Sequence record: PP359570
Length of the DNA: 64,000 nt
Source of the DNA: Escherichia phage ALITA
Reading direction: 5' to 3' (one strand)
The notes beneath the pieces were generated by a model, which saw only the letters and a list, made by a program, of their open reading frames with translations, did no database searches and was not told where the DNA came from. A program made the translations under genes and the position numbers. Positions 1 through 8,785 of this stretch are shown piece by piece. The stretch's first letter is position 1; the number at the start of each line of letters is the position of its first letter.

Positions 1-152
1 GAGCAGCAGAACACTGGTTAGAAATTCTTGAAAAAATGGAGTCCTCTTTTAAAGATTCAACTCCACCGGAAGAAGTTAATGAAAAACAACGGCAAGAGCG
101 TTTAGAAGGTCGTATTTTGTTTGCTAAGTATTTCCATAATTTGTGGAGCTAA
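1..152 (+). CDS. 3' end of an upstream gene (partial, hypothetical)
   Basis: Frame open from window edge to TAA at 150-152; no start codon in window. Confidence 0.3.
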   Translation, partial: AAEHWLEILEKMESSFKDSTPPEEVNEKQRQERLEGRILFAKYFHNLWS

Positions 153-228
153 ACATATCTGGTAAAATCACTTATATGTTCTTAGTATACTTGTGTAAAG
201 AAGTTATCGGTCTAATTAAGGGGAAGAT

Positions 229-480
229 ATGATTCAGTTTCAAAAAGGTCAAAAGATGACAGTTCACAATGCAGAGGAAATGGAATTTGCACTTAAACTT
301 CTCGAAAATGCTGGGTTTGTGTGGATCAACGGTGGAGAGAAGCCTACAGCTTGGCTTCCACATGAGAAAATAGCCAACCACACCTTTCCTGATAGTATCA
401 ATTGGCATTCTGATGGTAAGATTTGCCGTGGAAGTTACCCAACAGGTGTTGAGTGGACTATTAAATTAGGAGGGCTTTAA
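229..480 (+). CDS. hypothetical early protein (83 aa)
   Basis: ORF-track ORF; purine-rich SD-like run (aaggggaag) upstream of ATG; no recognisable motif. Confidence 0.5.
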   Translation: MIQFQKGQKMTVHNAEEMEFALKLLENAGFVWINGGEKPTAWLPHEKIANHTFPDSINWHSDGKICRGSYPTGVEWTIKLGGL

Positions 481-481
481 T

Positions 482-820
482 ATGTTTAGTAAAGAAATGA
501 GAGAAGTAATTGCCACTTTGGTAGTTGATCATGGTGTTGAAGTTGAGCGTCACGTTTGGAACGATGAACCTCCTTTCTTCGATTTGGCATCACGAGCTAA
601 AAGTCATATGCACCTGCTGGAAGACGGTAATGAGTTTGTTCTCCGTATGCGTTATGATCGAGAGTTTCGAATTCCGCTTGACACTGAACCAGATGGTGTA
701 GTAATGTGGTTGGCAGAACATTTCGCATACGATGCACTACATGGAAGAAGTTTTGGTAATGAGCGTTGGGATGCCATTTGTCGTAAGCATAATATTGAAC
801 CAGAGTACGGGAGTATGTAA
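482..820 (+). CDS. hypothetical protein (112 aa)
   Basis: ATG 2 nt after previous stop (coupled); no recognisable motif. Confidence 0.5.
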   Translation: MFSKEMREVIATLVVDHGVEVERHVWNDEPPFFDLASRAKSHMHLLEDGNEFVLRMRYDREFRIPLDTEPDGVVMWLAEHFAYDALHGRSFGNERWDAICRKHNIEPEYGSM

Positions 821-1071
821 TGTTAAGTATCAAACCTAAAATGATAACGGAAGATGAAGCAGACTTTATTTTCAAATGTGGACGTGTATGGAGAGAATTC
901 ACAAAAGGAAATGAAGTGGTTGTTGTTGTCGAACACAAGATATCTATCCAGGATCTGTTTGGACAATATGTTGATGTTATTAAATTAGGTATTGACAAGG
1001 GTTTAGTTGAGGTGTTAACATTAGATCAAGTTGAAGCAGAGCACCTCGATAAAGTAGTGGTTGAATTTTAA
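820..1071 (+). CDS. hypothetical protein (83 aa)
   Basis: Start overlaps previous stop (ATGTAATG); no recognisable motif. Confidence 0.5.
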   Translation: MLSIKPKMITEDEADFIFKCGRVWREFTKGNEVVVVVEHKISIQDLFGQYVDVIKLGIDKGLVEVLTLDQVEAEHLDKVVVEF

Positions 1072-1091
1072 AATACAGACGGGAGAAAGGT

Positions 1092-1265
1092 ATGAGTTTC
1101 TTTGTTACAGTATTTATGGCTATCTGGATTGTAGTCTCACTCGTTCTTTTCCTGGTGGGTTGTCTGGAAGAGATTAAGAAAGCGGTTATTTGCGGTTTCT
1201 TTGGCTTTATTATCTCTCCTGCCTGGATGTGGTTCTTCATTATGATTGGTTTCCTTAAAAGGTAA
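1092..1265 (+). CDS. small hydrophobic membrane protein (57 aa)
   Basis: Below ORF-track cutoff; GGGAGAAAGG SD then ATG; translation MSFFVTVFMAIWIVVSLVLFLVG... is strongly hydrophobic; coordinates by codon counting. Confidence 0.4.
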   Translation: MSFFVTVFMAIWIVVSLVLFLVGCLEEIKKAVICGFFGFIISPAWMWFFIMIGFLKR

Positions 1266-1279
1266 GTGAGGAATAAAGA

Positions 1280-1717
1280 ATGAGTAAAACAAACGCAATT
1301 GCAGATAAAGCAACGGATGTACTTCTGAACATGGTTAACGTCACTATTCAAACAATGAGTGATGTTGTAGAGTTTGGAAAACAACAAATTCCAGAAGTAA
1401 TCCATCAATTATTAGTGTGGAAAGCAGTATCCGCAGGTTTATGGCAACTTTTTAGTATTTGCTTTATGTTTATTACTTTTATTGCTGTGCGGAACCTCGT
1501 AAAAGCAATTAAAGATAAAGAATGCCTGTGGTCACGAGATCGCTATGGTGAAGTATCTGCTTTACCTATTGTTGGTCTTGTTGTCTGTGCTTTCTTTTTC
1601 TTTTTAGGATTTGTTATTTTCTTTTCGAATTTTGATTGGCTAAAAATCATTATTGCACCAAAAGTGTATCTGATTGAATTTGCTGCTGATTTAATTCGTT
1701 CATCTCAACAAAAATAA
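1280..1717 (+). CDS. membrane protein (145 aa)
   Basis: ORF-track ORF with several hydrophobic segments (e.g. LWQLFSICFMFITFIAV, LVVCAFFFFLGFVIFF). Confidence 0.5.
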   Translation: MSKTNAIADKATDVLLNMVNVTIQTMSDVVEFGKQQIPEVIHQLLVWKAVSAGLWQLFSICFMFITFIAVRNLVKAIKDKECLWSRDRYGEVSALPIVGLVVCAFFFFLGFVIFFSNFDWLKIIIAPKVYLIEFAADLIRSSQQK

Positions 1718-1728
1718 AAGGGGTTAAA

Positions 1729-2856
1729 ATGAAATACACGATTTATGGTGATATTGTAAGTGTAAATAAAGATATGGGCGTGGAATCTAACTATCTTCCA
1801 CCTGGATTCTATACTGTTAGTCGTGATCCCCTTGGCAATTATTTTTTAAGCCGTGGTAATCTAACAGGTGTACCGGATGTTTTGTATGGTGAAACAGAAA
1901 AACGAGCAAATCACGTTATCCGTACATTCCATCGCCGGAGTGCACAAGGTAAAAACACAGGCTTGCTTCTGACAGGAACTAAGGGCAGTGGTAAAACTAT
2001 GTTAGCCAAACTCATTAGTCGTGACCTTGTAGAAGAAGGTATTCCAACTATTATGGTTACTCAAGCCTACAGCGATGCTAATTTCATTGAACTTATTAGC
2101 AAGATCACCGACAAAGCAGTGATTATTTTTGACGAGTTTGATAAAGTATATGAGAAGAAACAAGATCAAGAAGCACTTCTCACTTTGTTAGATGGTACTG
2201 GGAGTGGTAATAAACTGTTTATTCTAACTAAAAACAGTGGTTTTATCTCTGAATTCTTTTTAAATCGTCCTAGTCGTGTGTTTTATAATTTTAATTATGA
2301 TAAAATCTCACTAGAAACTATGATTGACTATTTAGATAAAAACTTGGATAACAAAGCACACTTTGATAATTTCCAAAGGCTTTGGGATGTAAGTTTAGAG
2401 TTGTCCTTTGATGTGATCCAAGGTATAGTAGAAGAACTTAATTTCTACCCTGATTTATCCTTTAAAGAATGCATCTCTATGATGGGCGTTTCTTTGGGTG
2501 GTGGTAATAAATGGGATATCAGCAGCGTTGTTATTAATGGAAAACTTCAGAAAGTTAGCTGGGTATCTAGTTGGCATAACTTCACACCTGCAATCTTCTT
2601 AGGTGGCTCGTGCACACTAGACGTGTACTTGTCATCTCCAAGTGATGCAGACTCTAAAGAAGCCCTTGCTAATAGCTCTTACGTGGTTTTTGATGATGAA
2701 GGCGATGCTCGAATTCCATTGAATGCGACAAAAATGAAAGCAGATCTTATTACAGGCGGTAAAATCGTTGTGTTTAGTGATGATCCAGAAGATTCTTTCC
2801 GTATTGTTCTGGAACCAACTATCACCAATGGTGCAACTTTGGCAAGCGTGTTTTAA
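1729..2856 (+). CDS. AAA+/P-loop ATPase
   Basis: Walker A GTKGSGKT and Walker B IIFDEFD in translation; gene followed by hairpin terminator. Confidence 0.6.
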   Translation: MKYTIYGDIVSVNKDMGVESNYLPPGFYTVSRDPLGNYFLSRGNLTGVPDVLYGETEKRANHVIRTFHRRSAQGKNTGLLLTGTKGSGKTMLAKLISRDLVEEGIPTIMVTQAYSDANFIELISKITDKAVIIFDEFDKVYEKKQDQEALLTLLDGTGSGNKLFILTKNSGFISEFFLNRPSRVFYNFNYDKISLETMIDYLDKNLDNKAHFDNFQRLWDVSLELSFDVIQGIVEELNFYPDLSFKECISMMGVSLGGGNKWDISSVVINGKLQKVSWVSSWHNFTPAIFLGGSCTLDVYLSSPSDADSKEALANSSYVVFDDEGDARIPLNATKMKADLITGGKIVVFSDDPEDSFRIVLEPTITNGATLASVF

Positions 2857-2871
2857 GTAAGCCAGCAAATA

Positions 2872-2897
2872 AAAACCCGCTTCGGCGGGTTTTCTTG
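2872..2897 (+). terminator. rho-independent terminator, UUCG-tetraloop family
   Basis: aacccgcTTCGgcgggtt followed by T-run; same element recurs near 27.8 kb and (reverse) 32.2 kb; approx coordinates. Confidence 0.6.
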
Positions 2898-2930
2898 TAT
2901 TGATACCAGATTTAATAAGAGGAGTAATAG

Positions 2931-4337
2931 ATGCCAGCACCAAAATCATGGGAACAATATAAAGAAGAATTAACACCCCTTGCTAAAAATCACAACATTC
3001 AGATTCTGGGTTATATTGGTGAATGGAAAGGGAGCAAGACTAAACTTAAGCTATCTTGCTCTGATCATGGGGAGTGGGAAAGTACCATAATCAATAGCTT
3101 TAAAACTAAAGGCGGTAAATGTTGCCCCGATTGCAATGGTCGTAGAAAAGTAACAGAAGAAAAGGAATGTATTTCCCTTGTTGATGTTGCTAAAGAAAGA
3201 GGGTTTACTTTTATAGGTCTTGCCGAAGAGTGGCGAGGTGTGCTAACAAAAATCCGCATAGTTTGCCCTAAACATGGAGAGTGGAACACCACGACCATTA
3301 GTGGTTTTAGGAAGGGACGTGGTTGTCCGGCATGTGCAAGTAATAAGCCGTTAACATGGGAAACAGAATTACCGATCTTGGAAGAGATAGCACAGAAGAA
3401 GGGGTATCAGGTGTTAGGGTACGTGGGAGAATGGAAAGGGATTGATACAAAACTTGATTTGTTGTGTCACTGTGGTAACAGATGGGATACTACAAGTATT
3501 AACAGTTTTAAACATGATCATGGTTGTCCTTTATGTGGGTATGAGAATACAAGGAAGGCACAAACAATACCCGACGATCAACATATTGCAGATTTCTTTT
3601 CTACAGGGAAATTTAAGGAAGGCACTATCTTTACCAATACAGGGAAACGTAGTTGTAGTAAAAACAAGGACATTATCTGGATGATCGAATGTCCTGTTTG
3701 CTCTCATGATGAGTATGTGCAAGCAGGTGTATGTGATGGTAAGTTTTATATGACACGTAGCGATCTTAAGGCTGGACACTTGCCCTGCCGCTGTGCAACT
3801 AACTCTCATTATACAGAAAATCAGATTACCTACAGGGTAAAAAAGGAAGTAGAAGGGAGAGGGTATGTCTGGGTAGGTTGGATCGGTAAACCGTCTATAA
3901 GACTGGGTAATTTTAAATATCTTTGTCTTGTTCATGGGGAACAAATTGGTAGTGCTTATCGCTTACTATATCAGGATAATGGTTGTCCACAATGTGCAGG
4001 TCATAGTCAGCAGCAATTGTATGTTAATGTTGTTAAAGATAATGGTATTATAGTTGCTCTTAAGTTTGGTATATCTAAAGATAGTGCTAGGAGATTAAAC
4101 ATTCAAAATAGGCGTAATATGTTTTTTATGGAGCGTATTTGTTTATATGATTTTAGTACAGTGAAGCAGTGTAAGGCTGCTGAAAGAGCTATAAAGAAAA
4201 AATTAAAAACTGGTATCTTAACAGCAAGAGAGTTGAAAGATGGTTATACAGAAACAGTAAGTGTTTCTGATTTGGAAAATCTTCAAAAAATTATTACACA
4301 ATATGGTGGCAAATTAGTATACAGTAAGGAGGTGTAA
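2931..4337 (+). CDS. putative GIY-YIG/T5orf172-family nuclease with N-terminal Zn-ribbon repeat modules (homing-endonuclease-like)
   Basis: 4-5 repeats of ~45 aa module GEW.G..TKL.L.C..HGEW.TT.I.SF....GCP.C; C-terminal LYVNVV...KFGIS...RR...DGYTET resembles GIY / KIG.T / GYTE pattern. Confidence 0.5.
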   Translation: MPAPKSWEQYKEELTPLAKNHNIQILGYIGEWKGSKTKLKLSCSDHGEWESTIINSFKTKGGKCCPDCNGRRKVTEEKECISLVDVAKERGFTFIGLAEEWRGVLTKIRIVCPKHGEWNTTTISGFRKGRGCPACASNKPLTWETELPILEEIAQKKGYQVLGYVGEWKGIDTKLDLLCHCGNRWDTTSINSFKHDHGCPLCGYENTRKAQTIPDDQHIADFFSTGKFKEGTIFTNTGKRSCSKNKDIIWMIECPVCSHDEYVQAGVCDGKFYMTRSDLKAGHLPCRCATNSHYTENQITYRVKKEVEGRGYVWVGWIGKPSIRLGNFKYLCLVHGEQIGSAYRLLYQDNGCPQCAGHSQQQLYVNVVKDNGIIVALKFGISKDSARRLNIQNRRNMFFMERICLYDFSTVKQCKAAERAIKKKLKTGILTARELKDGYTETVSVSDLENLQKIITQYGGKLVYSKEV

Positions 4338-4889
4338 ATGCGGATTACTGATAAGTATGTGTTCTTCTTCTCGGCAAAAGATGAATTTAGCAACTGGTAT
4401 CTATCATCTTTTATTGAACCTTTAGCTCCCAAGTATAATAATTCTATTACAAGTTCTGTTGAATTTACTTGTGTGGAACAATATATGATGTGGAGAAAAG
4501 CATGTTTGTTTTATGATTACAGTATTGCATCTTCTATTTTAACCGGAGATCTAAGATATACAGGAGAAAAAGAACAAGCATATTATAAACGACTAGGCAG
4601 ATTAGTTAAAGATTATGATGAAGATACCTGGGCTTCTTTACGGGAGAAGATTGTCAAGCGTGGTTTGTATCTTAAATACACACAAAATGAAGATCTCAAA
4701 AATAAACTTATCGCTTACGCAGATAAGGAGTTCGTAGAGGCAAGCCCCTATGATTCTATTTATGGTATCAAAATGGGGATGTGGGATCGGGACGTGGAAA
4801 ATAAGGATTGTTGGAAAGGGCAAAATCTTTTAGGAAAATGGCATACAGACCTTGCTGTTTATCTAAAATCACAATCTGATATTTCCTGA
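4338..4889 (+). CDS. NADAR-domain protein (YbiA-like)
   Basis: FFFSAKDEFSNWY, CVEQYMMWRKACLF.D and EASPYDSIYGIKMG match NADAR/YbiA conserved blocks. Confidence 0.6.
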   Translation: MRITDKYVFFFSAKDEFSNWYLSSFIEPLAPKYNNSITSSVEFTCVEQYMMWRKACLFYDYSIASSILTGDLRYTGEKEQAYYKRLGRLVKDYDEDTWASLREKIVKRGLYLKYTQNEDLKNKLIAYADKEFVEASPYDSIYGIKMGMWDRDVENKDCWKGQNLLGKWHTDLAVYLKSQSDIS

Positions 4890-4916
4890 TATTTTGAAAA
4901 TTTTTATTTTTATAAA

Positions 4917-4962
4917 AAGGGGTGTGGGTTTCATGTACGGAAATCCACCCTCTGAATAATAT
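4917..4962 (+). terminator. imperfect hairpin after NADAR gene (possible terminator/processing site)
   Basis: gggtgtgggtttc...gaaatccaccc inverted repeat; no clear T-run; approx. Confidence 0.25.
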
Positions 4963-5103
4963 ATCCAGAGTAAGTAGTATTCTGTACTCTGTTAATAAAG
5001 TATTTAATTTGTTTGTTGGATTATGGTGGCTGATCTTTAAAAGGCATACTATCTCTTAACTACTACTTATAACAAAACAGTAAAATCCTTTTTATAAAAG
5101 TAC

Positions 5104-5311
5104 AAAATTATTTAAAGTTTTTACAGATTTTCGGGTACAAATTTTGAAAATGAAAAGTTCAAGTTTGGTCAAAATTATTTAAAGTTTTTGTACGTATTTC
5201 TGTCCAGATTTTGAAAATGAAAACTTCAATTTTTTAAAAATTCCCCAGTTTATTTAAAGTTTTTTTGCCTTTTTCCGTAGAAAAATCAAAAATGAAAAGT
5301 TCAATTTCGTG
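5104..5311. repeat. three imperfect ~65-70 bp tandem direct repeats
   Basis: Each unit carries ATTATTTAAAGTTTTT and (A)TTTTGAAAATGAAAA(G/C)TTCAA(G/T)TT; approx boundaries. Confidence 0.6.
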
Positions 5312-5326
5312 TTTTTATAGGTGTGT

Positions 5327-5438
5327 TAATGAGAATCATTTTCGTTTGTAAATGAGAATCATTATCATTTAACTATGTAAGTGATAATCATTCTCAGTAA
5401 GAGAATGAGAATCATTAGCAAATGAGAATTTTTCTCAT
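5327..5438. promoter_or_regulatory. cluster of five Fur-box-like AT-rich palindromic motifs
   Basis: AATGAGAATCATT(ATCATT), GTGATAATCATTCTC, AATGAGAATTTTTCTCATT; one copy differs from the Fur core ATGATAATCATTATC at one position. Confidence 0.45.
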
Positions 5439-5439
5439 T

Positions 5440-6200
5440 TACAGAATAACGCGCAGGGGCGGTGTTTGTCTCGCGCTCCCGTGTCCCCTCGCCATACAAT
5501 AAGAATAGCATAACCAATAACAAAAGCAAGCGATTATTTTTATCTTTACATTTCTTTACAAATTTATTTTAGACGAGCTACCGGCGATCAACCTTCCAAC
5601 CAGTGCCCCCTGGTATGTTAGCCCCGCCTTTACGCCGTGGGGTGGCGTTTCCTCTTCTGTATGTAAAACAGTATAAGCCCGATCCCTGGGCTTGTCAAGA
5701 TTATTTTTTGTTTTCTTGCCAGGATAGGACACCTAACCAAAAATACATGTCGCCCCGCGCCCCTGGTGGGATCTTGCTTTCCCCGCCGCCACTGCAAGCC
5801 CATAAATAACCATCAGCGAACGGATCAAAGTGATCTATCTCTTCCACCTTATGATCGCCCAGGTTGAGAACGGTTTCAACCTTTAAGCCCGTTGCGCTTG
5901 CTACCTGGTGCACCGTGCCGCCTTGCCAGCCCAGTGAGTGCATGAGATGTAAAGAAGTATTTGTCATGGTATCGCCCTTTCTTTGTTGTGCGCCCTGGTT
6001 GGCGCGGTAGAAAGATGATAGCCGTTTCCTTCATATATAGCAAGCAAAAAAGAAATGAAAAAAAGATTAAAAAATGGTTGACGTTCCTCACCTGGTAGCG
6101 TAGTATTCATCTTGTCGAGGGGGGCAAGACACAACGACAATAAACAATAGGCGGGTGCAATGCAAGACGGGCAAAGGTGAGGATCTCCACAATCCACCGT
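5440..6200. other. G+C-rich island inside otherwise AT-rich phage DNA
   Basis: Visibly GC-rich (gcgcaggggcggtg..., ccccgcgcccctggtggg...); composition unlike flanking DNA. Confidence 0.5.
5701..5967 (-). CDS. hypothetical protein (88 aa) in GC-rich island
   Basis: ORF-track ORF, only sizeable ORF in island; no recognisable motif. Confidence 0.25.
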   Translation of the reverse strand: MTNTSLHLMHSLGWQGGTVHQVASATGLKVETVLNLGDHKVEEIDHFDPFADGYLWACSGGGESKIPPGARGDMYFWLGVLSWQENKK

Positions 6201-6339
6201 CACAATAACATTACTTATAAAAGGTTGATAACGATGATCAAGAAAGAAAATAGCTTGACGGTTGGAACGATTAACGCTATCATTCTTGCCGTTCCATTTT
6301 GGATTGTAGTTGCGGTTATTATTTTCTAAAAAAATATTC

Positions 6340-6397
6340 TTGACAACGTTTTTTAATCTGATAAGATGTATCACATAGGGCGGCAATAGTGCCGCTC
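6340..6397 (+). promoter_or_regulatory. PeSL-like cassette: sigma70-type promoter + 5' stem-loop
   Basis: TTGACA-16 bp-TAAGAT then cacataGGGCGGCAatagTGCCGCtc hairpin, SD, ATG at 6420; approx. Confidence 0.6.
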
Positions 6398-6419
6398 ATA
6401 ACAGAAGAGAGAAATAATC

Positions 6420-6692
6420 ATGGCATCATATAGCGCATCAATGATTGTAAAGGGTATCACTGGTAAACCTATGCGCGGTGGCGGATCTTTCGCTAACATC
6501 AATATTGATGGACGTTTATCCCTGGACGCAGCGATCACAGTGGCACGGGAAACATTTAAAAAAGAATGTAATTTCAATAAACAAGATTATCTCGGTTTTG
6601 CTATTGAAAAAACCGCGCGCTTTGTGGATTATAAAAGCCCGAAAATGATCGACACTACACTAAAAGCGCAAGATGTAGCGTTTTTGCTTTAA
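6420..6692 (+). CDS. hypothetical early protein (90 aa)
   Basis: Immediately downstream of PeSL cassette; SD agaagagag. Confidence 0.6.
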   Translation: MASYSASMIVKGITGKPMRGGGSFANINIDGRLSLDAAITVARETFKKECNFNKQDYLGFAIEKTARFVDYKSPKMIDTTLKAQDVAFLL

Positions 6693-6695
6693 GAC

Positions 6696-6756
6696 TTGAC
6701 ACTGAAAAATAATTTGATAATATATACCACATAAGGCGGGGAAATGGTTTCCCGCC
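6696..6756 (+). promoter_or_regulatory. PeSL-like cassette
   Basis: TTGACA, AT-rich -10, GGCGGGGAAATGGTTTCCCGCC hairpin; approx. Confidence 0.6.
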
Positions 6757-6778
6757 AAATCAAAGAAAGGGTAATGCA

Positions 6779-7141
6779 ATGAGCAAGCAAATCAATACTA
6801 TCATGTTTAATCTGGTATCTTTCCGCGATGACGTGAAAAACCTTTCGCGTGATGCAGTGGATGCACGGATCGAAAGCTATCGCACACAGATCGCAACGTT
6901 ACCGCTGAAACGTGATCAACATGCCGCTAATATGATGCTTGATGCTATGATTAAAAAGATGATTCAATGTGATCTTACCCTGGCTTATGAATATGCTGGC
7001 GATCTCTTTGTAACATATAGCAAGCCCGTTCCAGGTATGAGCACCACGGAAGAATTGCATGCCTTAAATCTGCGACAAGATGCATGGGATAACATGCGCC
7101 GTGTTATGGTATGGGTAGAAAGCGGTAAAATTTACGAATAA
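6779..7141 (+). CDS. hypothetical early protein (120 aa)
   Basis: Downstream of PeSL cassette; SD aaagaaaggg. Confidence 0.6.
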   Translation: MSKQINTIMFNLVSFRDDVKNLSRDAVDARIESYRTQIATLPLKRDQHAANMMLDAMIKKMIQCDLTLAYEYAGDLFVTYSKPVPGMSTTEELHALNLRQDAWDNMRRVMVWVESGKIYE

Positions 7142-7147
7142 AAACGG

Positions 7148-7201
7148 TTGACATTGCACTAAAACCTGATAAGCTATCTTAAAGCGGGAATAGTTCCCGC
7201 T
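7148..7201 (+). promoter_or_regulatory. PeSL-like cassette
   Basis: TTGACA...gataag -10-like, aGCGGGAAtagTTCCCGCt hairpin; approx. Confidence 0.55.
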
Positions 7202-7219
7202 TACATAGGATAAAACTTT

Positions 7220-7366
7220 ATGAAACAATATGTAATGAGTATTCACACCAAAAACGGCGCTACTGTTACGACTCCGGCACGGTTTGCACTTGTAAACCGT
7301 TGCAAGAGACTAAAACGAGAGCTAAAAAACAACCGTGCAACGGGCTTTAAACGCTGGGGAGGATAA
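7220..7366 (+). CDS. small basic protein (48 aa)
   Basis: Below track cutoff; ATG 19 nt after cassette hairpin; MKQYVMSIHTKNGATV...; codon-counted. Confidence 0.4.
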   Translation: MKQYVMSIHTKNGATVTTPARFALVNRCKRLKRELKNNRATGFKRWGG

Positions 7367-7368
7367 TC

Positions 7369-7629
7369 TTGTTTTTTCTAAAAGTTTTTGATAATGTGAT
7401 CGCTTTTGAACATGCTACAACGTTCGACCTGGCGAGATACGCTATCAGGTTTAAAGATAATGTTTATCCCCGTGCTGGCGGCGGTTACACTATTTTTAAT
7501 CATCGCAACGCGCAACTAACTGATATAACTAATCCAGATCCTGGAGTGTATCGGATAGGCTGGCTACCGTCAAAAGATGCGGCAAGCATGTTTAAGGTAT
7601 GTAAACTACTAACAGAAGAGGCGAACTAA
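7369..7629 (+). CDS. hypothetical protein (86 aa), TTG start
   Basis: ORF-track ORF beginning at TTG 7 nt after GGAGGA. Confidence 0.4.
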   Translation: MFFLKVFDNVIAFEHATTFDLARYAIRFKDNVYPRAGGGYTIFNHRNAQLTDITNPDPGVYRIGWLPSKDAASMFKVCKLLTEEAN

Positions 7630-7630
7630 C

Positions 7631-8185
7631 ATGGGGCGTGAATATGTGATCCAGTCCTGGGTAAAGCATGATGCTAATGATCCGCGCATAATACCAGATG
7701 ACATGATCGATCACATGGTAGGGTATAGCGGGGAGCAGATAGGAAATCGAGCGGCAAAGAGCAACGGCAACACCAGGACGCGATCCGTTCGCCCTGGATG
7801 GCTGGCAAATGGTAACGCTGACATTGCAAGCGCCGCAGATCCAAGCGATGACGCTAAAAATAATCCCTTATACAGTATTGATCCGGCTTTTAAGGTGTTG
7901 GAAGAGTATCCCGCTAAATTAGCCGCACTAGATAAAGCATACGAAGAAAAACGGGTGGCATGGACTGTATACAACACCGCTAAAATGGTGCTAGATGCAA
8001 AATTGATTAAAGCCCAGGAGAAGATCAATAAACTTGTTACCATAGCGCAAGAGGAAGACCAGGACGACCAGGAGGAAGAGGAAGAAATCATGCCTAACCT
8101 GGAAGAGGAAGAGATCCAGCCATACACGCCGACAGAAGAGGAAAAAATACAAGCCTTAAAAAATTATAAAAATTGTATTGTGTAA
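7631..8185 (+). CDS. hypothetical protein with highly acidic C-terminus (184 aa)
   Basis: ORF-track ORF; C-terminal EEDQDDQEEEEEIMPNLEEEEIQP run. Confidence 0.5.
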   Translation: MGREYVIQSWVKHDANDPRIIPDDMIDHMVGYSGEQIGNRAAKSNGNTRTRSVRPGWLANGNADIASAADPSDDAKNNPLYSIDPAFKVLEEYPAKLAALDKAYEEKRVAWTVYNTAKMVLDAKLIKAQEKINKLVTIAQEEDQDDQEEEEEIMPNLEEEEIQPYTPTEEEKIQALKNYKNCIV

Positions 8186-8188
8186 GGC

Positions 8189-8245
8189 TTGACATATGCA
8201 AACAAGCCCCGTAATATGTACCACATAGAGCGGGGCAACCCCCTC
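8189..8245 (+). promoter_or_regulatory. PeSL-like cassette (upstream of tandem pair)
   Basis: TTGACA-17-TAATAT, cacatagaGCGGGGcaaCCCCctc hairpin; approx. Confidence 0.5.
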
Positions 8246-8265
8246 AAAGGTGAAATAAAAATCAC

Positions 8266-8293
8266 TTGACAACTGAAATCAGTAAGCTATAAT
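8266..8293 (+). promoter_or_regulatory. sigma70-type promoter without hairpin
   Basis: TTGACA-16-TATAAT consensus; approx. Confidence 0.6.
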
Positions 8294-8330
8294 GCTTATA
8301 TAAATTAAAGCGTTACTAAGGAATAAAATC

Positions 8331-8696
8331 ATGGCTAAAAATATCAATGTTTCTGCTTATGCTACCCTGGCTAACACTGCTAAAATTGAACTATCCAGCA
8401 TTGAAGCGGTACATATTAGCGCCCGTCGCTGGTTTCAAAAGTCTTATGGTAATACTTATTTCTCTTTGATGGTTGACGTTGAGATCGGCGGTAAACTGAT
8501 TGAAGTCGTTAACGTTCCGTTTCAATATGGTTATGGTGATCATTTTGATACCGTTGCCCTAGAAGAGTTTAGCAAGGTTATCAACCTGGAAGGTAAAGAC
8601 TTTTCAAATTATGCTTACCTTTCCCGTTTTTGCCGTGATAATGGGATCGCTGTATACAGTCATGCAAGCGATGTTAAACGTAAAAAAGATTTATAA
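8331..8696 (+). CDS. hypothetical early protein (121 aa)
   Basis: Downstream of tandem promoters; SD aaggaa. Confidence 0.6.
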   Translation: MAKNINVSAYATLANTAKIELSSIEAVHISARRWFQKSYGNTYFSLMVDVEIGGKLIEVVNVPFQYGYGDHFDTVALEEFSKVINLEGKDFSNYAYLSRFCRDNGIAVYSHASDVKRKKDL

Positions 8697-8702
8697 AAAG
8701 TA

Positions 8703-8762
8703 TTGACAGCACGAATAAAAAGCGTAAAATGTTTTATATCAGGACGGGGGAACGGTTTCCCC
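8703..8762 (+). promoter_or_regulatory. PeSL-like cassette
   Basis: TTGACA-16-TAAAAT, GGGGGAAcggTTTCCCC hairpin; approx. Confidence 0.6.
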
Positions 8763-8785
8763 TCCTAACAAAGAGAGAAATAAAA

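Follow-up and report, generated by a model that had tools for sequence, protein, structure and literature searches.

Three adjacent plus-strand genes of Escherichia phage ALITA (sequence record PP359570), encoding an AAA+ ATPase, a nuclease with a zinc-module array, and a NADAR protein, raise the question of whether they act jointly against a host defense based on DNA ADP-ribosylation or represent neighbors with separate functions. The genes are located in a stretch of 64,000 nucleotides, referred to here as the window, which represents a phi92-like coliphage of the genus Justusliebigvirus and for which the BASEL phage Bas60 (PaulScherrer) was the closest record. The explanation that best accounts for the locus as a whole, with a probability of roughly 85%, is that the NADAR protein corresponds to AdfN, that the nuclease is a putative homing endonuclease, and that the ATPase is an independent core gene.

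All three consecutive genes proposed in an earlier, sequence-only reading were recovered as open reading frames at positions 1729-2856 (375 aa), 2931-4337 (468 aa), and 4338-4889 (183 aa), and the domain assignments made there hold. In profile searches, the first protein matched the AAA+ family PF00004 (38.9 bits vs. a cutoff of 21.2), the third matched the NADAR family PF08719 (125.4 bits vs. a cutoff of 35.1, profile positions 9-154 of 163 being covered), and the second, featuring a GIY-YIG fold, matched the T5orf172 family PF10544 with 17.5 bits for the whole protein and 20.2 bits for the C-terminal 117 aa alone (cutoff 20). The ATPase gene is followed, 15 nt past its stop codon, by an intrinsic-terminator-like hairpin on the plus strand (2872-2903), detected by a terminator scan and by reading of the sequence, and composed of AAAACCCGC-TTCG-GCGGGTTTT and a T-rich tail. 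All ten Stephanstirmvirinae loci examined carry a GC-rich stem-loop and a T tract at this position, and at least four different stem sequences occur among them. The nuclease gene is preceded by the Shine–Dalgarno sequence AAGAGGAG (2917-2924) and the NADAR gene by AAGGAGG (4326-4332), both read from the plus strand, the latter being situated within the 3' end of the nuclease reading frame. The stop codon TAA of this frame (4335-4337) directly abuts the NADAR start codon ATG (4338). In Justusliebigvirus, the two probably share a transcript and are probably coupled in translation. With a zero-nucleotide junction and a NADAR ribosome-binding site that falls within the preceding reading frame, some regulatory coupling may exist. 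The promoter scan did not rise above chance (24 sigma-70-like sites vs. 22.4 ± 4.5 expected from shuffled sequence) and, thus, lent no support to the 'early' timing assumed in the sequence-only reading or to a promoter specific to the nuclease and NADAR genes. The tRNA scan of the window returned none, and the Rfam scan of positions 1-10000 yielded one sub-threshold miRNA match only, which was taken as chance. None of the three genes was found to have a paralogue elsewhere in the window.

The nuclease gene begins with a predicted DNA-binding array of five CapR-type treble-clef zinc modules (2931-4010, plus strand), matched by the CapR profile PF21817 with 157.9 bits in four stretches. The modules are 65-82 aa long and comprise aa 1-75 (2931-3155), 76-142 (3156-3356), 143-213 (3357-3569), 214-295 (3570-3815), and 296-360 (3816-4010). 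Scanned singly against the same profile, modules 1-5 achieved 42.5, 37.4, 52.7, 50.9, and 18.3 bits, respectively, four of them being above the cutoff and one below. Four to five tandem Zn-ribbon modules of ~45 aa had been proposed for this region; their tandem arrangement was borne out, their number is five, and their length had been underestimated. Each module features four Cys/His residues in two knuckles, the putative ligands being C43/H46/C65/C68, C112/H115/C132/C135, C179/C181/C199/C202, C254/C257/C286/C288, and C332/H335/C352/C355 for modules 1 to 5, respectively. The remaining part of the gene (4011-4337, plus strand) encodes the T5orf172 domain (aa 361-468) and the stop codon, and it is this C-terminal domain in which the GIY-YIG alpha/beta fold is present. 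Among 73 aligned members of the nuclease family, 29 matched PF10544 (best E 1.1e-8) and eight matched MUG113. Across these 73 sequences, R388 and E441 of the putative active site are invariant, and Y364 is conserved in at least 90%. NCBIfam held no family for the nuclease, the PDB sequence search returned no meaningful match, and PADLOC reported nothing for it. The five modules, arranged like beads on a string, would read a long DNA target, which the C-terminal domain would cut.

The same architecture was published previously for putative homing endonucleases of phage ICP1, including repeat-mediated in-frame indels (Barth 2023, PMC10448857; PMC8096241). The ICP1 T5orf172 proteins (gp165, gp174, and others) likewise combine N-terminal repeated CapR/DUF723 zinc-finger modules with a C-terminal T5orf172 domain and show direct sequence homology to the ALITA nuclease (E about 1e-25). 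In both cases, alleles differ in repeat number without loss of the reading frame, and divergence is locally concentrated at the gene, forming a hot spot. Compared to the ICP1 proteins and PLE CapR (Netter 2021, PMC8096241), the ALITA nuclease is distinguished by its five modules and by its occurrence as a single copy per genome, fixed at one site. The CapR-type CxxC...CxC pattern is found in module 4 only, whereas the four other modules carry the ligand sets C-x2-H...C-x2-C or C-x-C...C-x2-C. In contrast to the GIY-YIG nucleases I-TevI, SLX1, and HIGLE, the ALITA domain belongs to the T5orf172 subfamily, its second motif being K-F-G-I instead of Y-I-G, and the domain order of I-TevI is reversed, with the nuclease domain located at the C-terminus.

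The nuclease gene also evolves much faster than both neighbors. Compared to Bas60, its nucleotide identity is 89.6%, whereas the ATPase and NADAR genes reach 98.5% and 97.6%, respectively; its dN/dS value is 0.36, compared to 0.00 and 0.04 for the neighbors, and dS rises up to 0.5-0.67 in modules 4-5. Orthologues encode five, four, three, or two CapR modules, and, across 405 phage records, members of the family occupy 710 places. An ICP1 genome carries three to four copies, and an extra paralogue occurs in phiWec179. In Klebsiella phage phi1_175008 and Citrobacter phage Tr1, the ATPase gene and the terminator are followed by a phrog_24465 gene with no nuclease between them, whereas the order in phAPEC8 is ATPase, terminator, nuclease, and then phrog_24465. 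Since the slot behind the ATPase gene is empty in the former phages and filled in the latter, the nuclease gene represents an insertion into this slot. Such an intergenic insertion with presence/absence polymorphism, which here exists between genera and not within Justusliebigvirus, is what characterizes a free-standing homing gene. Architecture, fold, module turnover, and insertion pattern, thus, support the option of a free-standing homing endonuclease raised in the sequence-only reading. Architecture, fold, and evolutionary pattern are those of free-standing ICP1/T5-type nucleases, from which we infer that the 468-aa protein cleaves DNA and is a putative homing endonuclease. Its gene occupies the intergenic slot beyond the ATPase terminator and diversifies by gain and loss of modules and by recombination.

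All Justusliebigvirus and Phapecoctavirus records inspected carry the nuclease gene, and its site never varies among them, a pattern equally compatible with active homing and with fixation or domestication. It is rather unlikely, however, that the protein is no longer mobile and instead serves as a DNA-binding regulator, in the manner of PLE CapR or I-TevI autorepression, or as an anti-competitor nuclease resembling ICP1 Odn. Fixation at one site in two genera, the translational juxtaposition to adfN, and precedents of domestication in this family (PMC8096241; limitation discussed in PMC10448857) would agree with such a role, and the invariance of the putative catalytic residues implies a retained function. 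In contrast, a high dN/dS value combined with module turnover is typical of selfish nucleases, the paralogue in phiWec179 and the multiple copies in other phages point in the same direction, and the gene is absent at the equivalent site in related phages. A putative homing endonuclease, accordingly, remains the preferred assignment.

That this nuclease, as a selfish element, and adfN travel as a unit appears doubtful. In favor of this reading, the two genes abut without a spacer, the adfN ribosome-binding site is part of the nuclease reading frame, and both are absent together from the related Klebsiella and Citrobacter phages. Among five other sampled loci from four lineages, a NADAR gene was found adjacent to a nuclease gene in two Seunavirus phages only, and a general association of NADAR and nuclease genes is not claimed here. 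In Seunavirus, it is an HNH endonuclease gene that directly follows the NADAR gene, a comparable arrangement. The arrangement seen in ALITA is genus-specific and does not represent an obligate partnership. If the two genes did travel together, gene conversion triggered by the nuclease could carry the anti-DarT gene into phages that lack it, and a homing-type nuclease would be a vehicle spreading a counter-defense gene.

The third gene (4338-4889, plus strand) encodes an orphan NADAR protein, predicted to be a DNA ADP-ribosylglycohydrolase. It is identical in 181 of 183 residues to bas60_0111 of Bas60, which we take to be AdfN^Bas60, is of equal length, and occupies the same genomic position behind the same nuclease gene, so that both are considered the same protein by orthology. 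The two substitutions (A99T and S178T) are conservative and located away from the catalytic positions, and no functional change is expected from them. Furthermore, the protein matched the PDB structure 8BAU (P. nicotianae NADAR, PnNADAR) with E 6.5e-13, and the phmmer alignment placed its residues E47, K54, K84, and R88 on the ADP-ribose-contacting E43, K50, K75, and R79 of PnNADAR; the catalytic and ADP-ribose-binding residues are thus conserved. PADLOC offered the candidate family PDC-M42C only, which was uninformative. No darT-like gene adjoins the NADAR gene, the upstream neighbor being the nuclease gene and the downstream 1.5 kb being devoid of a long open reading frame. A classification as DarG1-type antitoxin was rejected, as an adjoining darT1 toxin gene belongs to that type.

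Johannesman et al. (Nat Commun 2025, PMC11825919) named the Bas60 protein AdfN^Bas60, the anti-DarT factor NADAR of the BASEL phages Bas60-62. They reported that it neutralizes DarT1 without phage infection and restores plaquing of RB69, T5, and Bas25 on DarTG1 hosts, while DarTG2 is unaffected, its activity being specific to DarT1 (guanine) and not DarT2 (thymine) (PMC11825919). In the text of that article, the protein is assayed by ectopic expression only and no deletion in a phi92-like phage is described, so that its role during native infection is a presumed one (PMC11825919). The suggestion made from the sequence that the NADAR protein counters a DarT-type defense was right, as only two residues separate it from a protein experimentally shown to neutralize DarT1 (PMC11825919). 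By orthology to this 99% identical Bas60 protein, an anti-DarTG1 function is also expected for ALITA; the idea is already published and opens no new biological question. Host DarT1 toxin would ADP-ribosylate guanine in the phage DNA, and AdfN, as an orphan, antitoxin-like glycohydrolase, would strip the guanine-linked ADP-ribose, which may allow the phage to replicate in E. coli bearing DarTG1. Since ALITA carries an anti-DarTG1 factor of a validated type, this assignment helps to predict its host range on such strains.

The NADAR fold is shared with AdfN^T4 (gp30.3) and with the DarG1/DarT1-associated NADAR antitoxins (Schuller et al. 2023, PMC11543638). The conserved Glu/Lys pair is represented by E47/K54 in ALITA, E36/K43 in AdfN^T4, and E88/K95 in the E. 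coli C7 NADAR, and specificity for guanine-linked ADP-ribose would be common to the ALITA protein, AdfN^T4, and the DarG1-type antitoxins. However, the ALITA protein belongs to another clade than AdfN^T4 and the DarG1-type NADARs, the latter having a neighboring darT, and AdfN^Bas60 differs from AdfN^T4 in requiring no other phage factor (PMC11825919). Phe132 may take the place of the catalytic Asp171 of C7 NADAR, as deduced from the distance between D171 and E173 in the latter, provided that E134 corresponds to E173.

A YbiA-like N-glycosidase whose substrates are small molecules, either riboflavin-pathway intermediates or immune signals derived from ADP-ribose, rather than DNA adducts, would be a very unlikely identity for this protein. 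It exceeded the cutoff of the NCBIfam family TIGR02464 (riboflavin intermediates N-glycosidase; 110 bits vs. 73.7), its gene is labeled 'YbiA-like N-glycosidase' or 'GTP cyclohydrolase II' in public records, the main targets of phage NADARs were predicted by Iyer et al. 2022 to be low-molecular-weight ADP-ribose derivatives (PMC9503650), and members of the same NADAR clade are located among RNA-repair genes in Listeria phages. On the other hand, AdfN^Bas60 counters DarT1, a DNA guanine ADP-ribosyltransferase, in vivo (PMC11825919), whereas YbiA provides no protection against DarT1 in vivo (PMC11125620). E. coli YbiA (PDB 2b3w) is a distant match only (E 0.037), and AdfN^Bas60 was grouped by the authors with bacterial NADARs that are neither DarT-associated nor YbiA (PMC11825919). 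Beside its presumed activity on DNA adducts, the AdfN orthologue may have an additional small-molecule substrate.

The ATPase (1729-2856, plus strand) is a classic-clade AAA+ protein, as indicated by PF00004, by phrog_2376 (362 bits), and by its AF2 model (pLDDT 87.6), and represents a core gene of the Stephanstirmvirinae. Its AAA core is flanked by a beta domain on the N-terminal side and a beta-rich domain on the C-terminal side, and all 375 residues of the protein are identical in Bas60. Invariant positions in 58 homologues comprise Walker A (G83-T90), Walker B (D135/E136), N169, R180, and R183. The top Foldseek matches were Bcs1, proteasomal Rpt, FtsH, and NSF (E 2e-9, probability 1.0); with this clade (Bcs1, proteasomal Rpt/PAN, the FtsH AAA module, and NSF/p97), the core shares Walker A/B, sensor 1, and two arginines in NRPxR, whereas the two beta domains flanking it are unique to this ATPase. 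The protein probably acts as a protein-remodeling ring. PADLOC found weak P-loop matches only. The public label 'FtsH-like protease / Zn metalloprotease' was ruled out, because, unlike FtsH, the protein has no M41 peptidase domain or HExxH motif, and no peptidase family appeared among the best 25 of 32 Pfam matches listed.

One counter-defense module, in which the ATPase would remodel or load, the nuclease recognize modified DNA, and the NADAR protein remove the adduct, is extremely improbable: the three genes are strictly adjacent in the same orientation in all ~55 Justusliebigvirus records, and Phapecoctavirus shows the same order plus two extra small genes, but AdfN^Bas60 alone neutralizes DarT1 and rescues unrelated phages (PMC11825919), the conserved terminator hairpin separates the ATPase gene from the other two, the ATPase is kept at 71-74% identity in related phages without nuclease and NADAR, and the evolutionary rate of the nuclease is very different from that of both neighbors. 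Because AdfN^Bas60 works alone, the proposal that the nuclease is part of the same countermeasure found no support. Nor did the implied three-gene block withstand the terminator, the ATPase-only relatives, and the distant homologues. The ATPase gene closes a transcription unit of its own, no link between it and the nuclease or NADAR gene could be demonstrated, and the three adjacent genes are best explained as functionally independent. As judged in the GenBank phage collection, the IMG/VR NADAR scan having given five loci, too few for statistics, homologues of ATPase and NADAR outside the subfamily are separated by ~175 kb in phage CBB, ~19 kb in Enterococcus phage 156, and ~9 kb in Lactobacillus phage Semele. 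Beside the labels mentioned above for the NADAR and ATPase genes, 'DNA methyltransferase' is a further misleading database label to be corrected at this locus.

ORF calling on the window returned exactly the three successive plus-strand ORFs claimed by the sequence-only reading, namely those of the AAA+ ATPase (1729-2856, 375 aa), the nuclease (2931-4337, 468 aa), and the NADAR protein (4338-4889, 183 aa). The AAA and NADAR assignments were confirmed by Pfam (PF00004 with 38.9 bits, cutoff 21.2, and PF08719 with 125.4 bits, cutoff 35.1, respectively). For the nuclease, the zinc repeats were likewise recovered (CapR, PF21817, 157.9 bits), whereas the T5orf172 domain (PF10544) scored 17.5 bits in the whole-protein search, below the cutoff of 20. 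The PHROGs assignments were concordant: phrog_2376 'ATPase' (362 bits), phrog_681 'endonuclease' (311 bits), and phrog_1017 for NADAR (170 bits). The 3.2-kb block shares 91-95% DNA identity with about 55 phi92-like coliphages (Justusliebigvirus, Stephanstirmvirinae), its top match being the BASEL phage Bas60 (PaulScherrer), with identical residues at 375 of 375 (ATPase), 402 of 468 (nuclease), and 181 of 183 (NADAR) positions. The sequence-only annotation is accurate, but the biology of the block has already been published.

To resolve the architecture of the nuclease, its modules and C-terminal part were scanned one by one against profiles. Instead of the proposed zinc modules of about 45 aa, five CapR-type modules of 65-82 aa each were obtained: aa 1-75 (42.5 bits), 76-142 (37.4 bits), 143-213 (52.7 bits), 214-295 (50.9 bits), and 296-360 (18.3 bits). 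All five carry four Cys/His residues in two knuckles; the whole-protein Pfam scan placed CapR in four stretches. The C-terminal piece alone reached 20.2 bits for T5orf172 (cutoff 20). In an alignment of 73 homologues, G380, R388, and E441 were invariant, and Y364, K378, I381, E418, D437, G438, T440, and T442 were conserved in at least 90%; PF10544 was matched by 29 of these family members and the related MUG113 by eight. CapR, a zinc-finger domain that binds DNA, was first defined in the repressor of the PLE satellite and is common to this repressor and the T5orf172 putative homing endonucleases of ICP1 (PMC8096241). The latter are directly homologous to the ALITA nuclease (tblastn, E ~1e-25), and tblastn located the family at 710 places across 405 phage records. 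That CapR/DUF723 modules are repeated and deleted in frame, that domains are swapped, and that such nuclease genes lie at recombination boundaries has already been described (Barth et al. 2023, PMC10448857). The ALITA nuclease is a further member of this CapR-T5orf172 family.

The nuclease is also the variable part of the locus. Nucleotide identity to Bas60 is 98.5% for the ATPase, 97.6% for NADAR, and 89.6% for the nuclease, and it drops to 77-79% at 3751-4050 inside the latter; the tract divergent from Bas60 is limited to this ORF. The corresponding dN/dS values are 0.00, 0.04, and 0.36. Since dS is raised to as much as 0.5-0.67 in modules 4-5, the comparison points to recombination of these modules with a more distant allele. 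Orthologues contain five, four, three, or two modules (approximately 468, 395, 327, and 263 aa), which accounts for the coverage classes of 94%, 90%, and 86% within Justusliebigvirus. At the same site in Phapecoctavirus, nuclease alleles are just 35-53% identical, with the ATPase at 64-67%. Klebsiella phage phi1_175008 and Citrobacter phage Tr1 carry, in succession, the up145 gene, the ATPase (74% and 71% identity), the terminator, phrog_24465, and DUF6939, nuclease and NADAR both being missing from the ATPase locus, whereas phAPEC8 has the ATPase, the terminator, the nuclease, phrog_24465, phrog_22330, and NADAR. Because the former lack the nuclease and phAPEC8 carries it, the gene behaves as an intergenic-slot insertion. 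Active homing is inferred. Domestication of the nuclease in place of homing would agree with its fixation in both Justusliebigvirus and Phapecoctavirus, and is a less probable but plausible alternative.

The post-terminator slot of phi1_175008 (L010, 7167-8122) and Tr1 (L012, 7171-7982) is occupied by a small gene and by one for a DUF6939 protein of 205 aa (PF22075, 38.6 and 31.2 bits), replacing nuclease and NADAR; the small gene is phrog_24465 in phi1_175008 and is given by position only in Tr1. The slot resembles a position at which accessory genes are exchanged. Furthermore, Escherichia phage phiWec179 harbors a second CapR-T5orf172 paralogue in opposite orientation (L011 2657-3610, minus strand), inserted a few kb upstream of the ATPase, which is consistent with a mobile nuclease family within Stephanstirmvirinae.

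The proposal that the three genes form a single block is not supported, as four observations speak against it. Firstly, the terminator scan and the sequence itself revealed a terminator-like hairpin with a T-rich tail (2872-2893), 15 nt past the ATPase stop codon. A hairpin with T tract occupies the same position in all ten Stephanstirmvirinae loci compared, the stems representing at least four unrelated sequences, which argues for a conserved function. Secondly, two genes lie between nuclease and NADAR in Phapecoctavirus. Thirdly, homologues of ATPase and NADAR are unlinked outside the subfamily; approximately 175 kb lie between them in CBB, 19 kb in Enterococcus phage 156, and 9 kb in Lactobacillus phage Semele. 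Finally, AdfN^Bas60, the NADAR protein of Bas60, acts alone. Within the locus, no nucleotide separates the stop codon of the nuclease from the NADAR start codon, and the NADAR Shine-Dalgarno sequence lies inside the nuclease ORF. The promoter scan found sigma-70-like sites no more often than expected by chance. That the nuclease helps its neighbor adfN to spread through co-conversion is quite improbable; in the few other NADAR loci sampled, adjacency was not general, a nuclease neighbor occurring only in Seunavirus. There, an HNH endonuclease gene directly follows the NADAR homologue (~38-40% identity) in KE23 (L013 2465-3447) and 4MG (L015 2501-3446). In Listeria phage LP-048 (L017), NADAR is flanked by RtcB and RNA ligase genes, representing an RNA-repair context.

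Judged by its sequence, the ALITA NADAR protein is AdfN^Bas60, the name given to the NADAR encoded by Bas60, Bas61, and Bas62 (Johannesman et al. 2025, PMC11825919), the phi92-like members of the BASEL collection, PaulScherrer among them. Both residues differing from the Bas60 protein are non-catalytic. NADAR matched the P. nicotianae NADAR structure 8BAU (phmmer, E 6.5e-13), E47, K54, K84, and R88 aligning with its ADP-ribose-contacting E43, K50, K75, and R79. In E. coli, expression of AdfN^Bas60 alone suffices to neutralize the toxin DarT1, and RB69, T5, and Bas25 regain their full titre on hosts with DarTG1. AdfN^Bas60 does not counter the thymidine-modifying DarTG2 and, in contrast to AdfN^T4, requires no other phage factor; these tests employed ectopic expression, not deletion in the native phage (PMC11825919). 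As a protein identical at 181 of 183 positions neutralizes DarT1, the suggested activity against DarT-type defence is right, specifically for DarT1 and guanine, and had already been tested experimentally on AdfN^Bas60 (PMC11825919). No darT-like gene adjoins NADAR, which therefore represents an orphan antitoxin-like enzyme. Under the alternative annotation, founded on TIGR02464 (110 bits), the protein would be a riboflavin N-glycosidase akin to YbiA, or a 'GTP cyclohydrolase II'. This appears improbable: E. coli YbiA matches the ALITA protein only marginally (E 0.037) and does not confer DarT1 protection in vivo (PMC11125620). Small-molecule substrates have been predicted for phage NADARs (Iyer et al. 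2022, PMC9503650), and AdfN may have a second substrate of this kind.

The ATPase is a core gene unrelated to nuclease and NADAR. Its Walker A and B motifs, sensor 1, and two arginines do not vary among 58 homologues, and its AF2 model (pLDDT 87.6) matches the AAA modules of Bcs1, Rpt, FtsH, and NSF. The family occurs widely in large phages (379 records), among them jumbo phages and phages of the Gram-positive hosts Bacillus, Enterococcus, Lactobacillus, and Staphylococcus. Annotating the ATPase as 'FtsH-like protease / Zn metalloprotease' is an error, because neither a peptidase domain (Pfam; best 25 of 32 matches) nor an HExxH motif was found. In phmmer, aa 201-291, modeled as a helical lid and the start of a C-terminal beta domain, weakly matched several PDB entries of the influenza A NS1 effector domain (E 8e-4 to 5e-2), probably by chance. 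Directly upstream, a 145-aa predicted membrane protein (phrog_3054, 1280-1717) is co-conserved with the ATPase, even in phi1_175008 and Tr1 (44% identity), and is a better candidate partner than nuclease or NADAR.

Approximately 1.5 kb downstream of NADAR (4890-6419) contain no convincing long ORF, yet are 95.8% identical to Bas60. Neither tRNAs nor Rfam families were detected in this region; promoter-like and terminator-like sites occur on both strands, among them a sigma-70 match (11/12, 5698->5670, minus strand) and hairpins at 5624-5648, 5693-5675, and 5754-5770. A minus-strand ORF of 88 aa (5701-5967) has an annotated counterpart in Bas60, and Phapecoctavirus has a 267-nt minus-strand CDS at a comparable position. 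Small RNAs or small proteins may be encoded here. At the start of the window, positions 1-147 match Bas60 inverted (L001 6631-6485) and 148-572 have no counterpart in the Bas60 stretch compared, pointing to local rearrangement or to replacement of a gene beside the point of divergent transcription.
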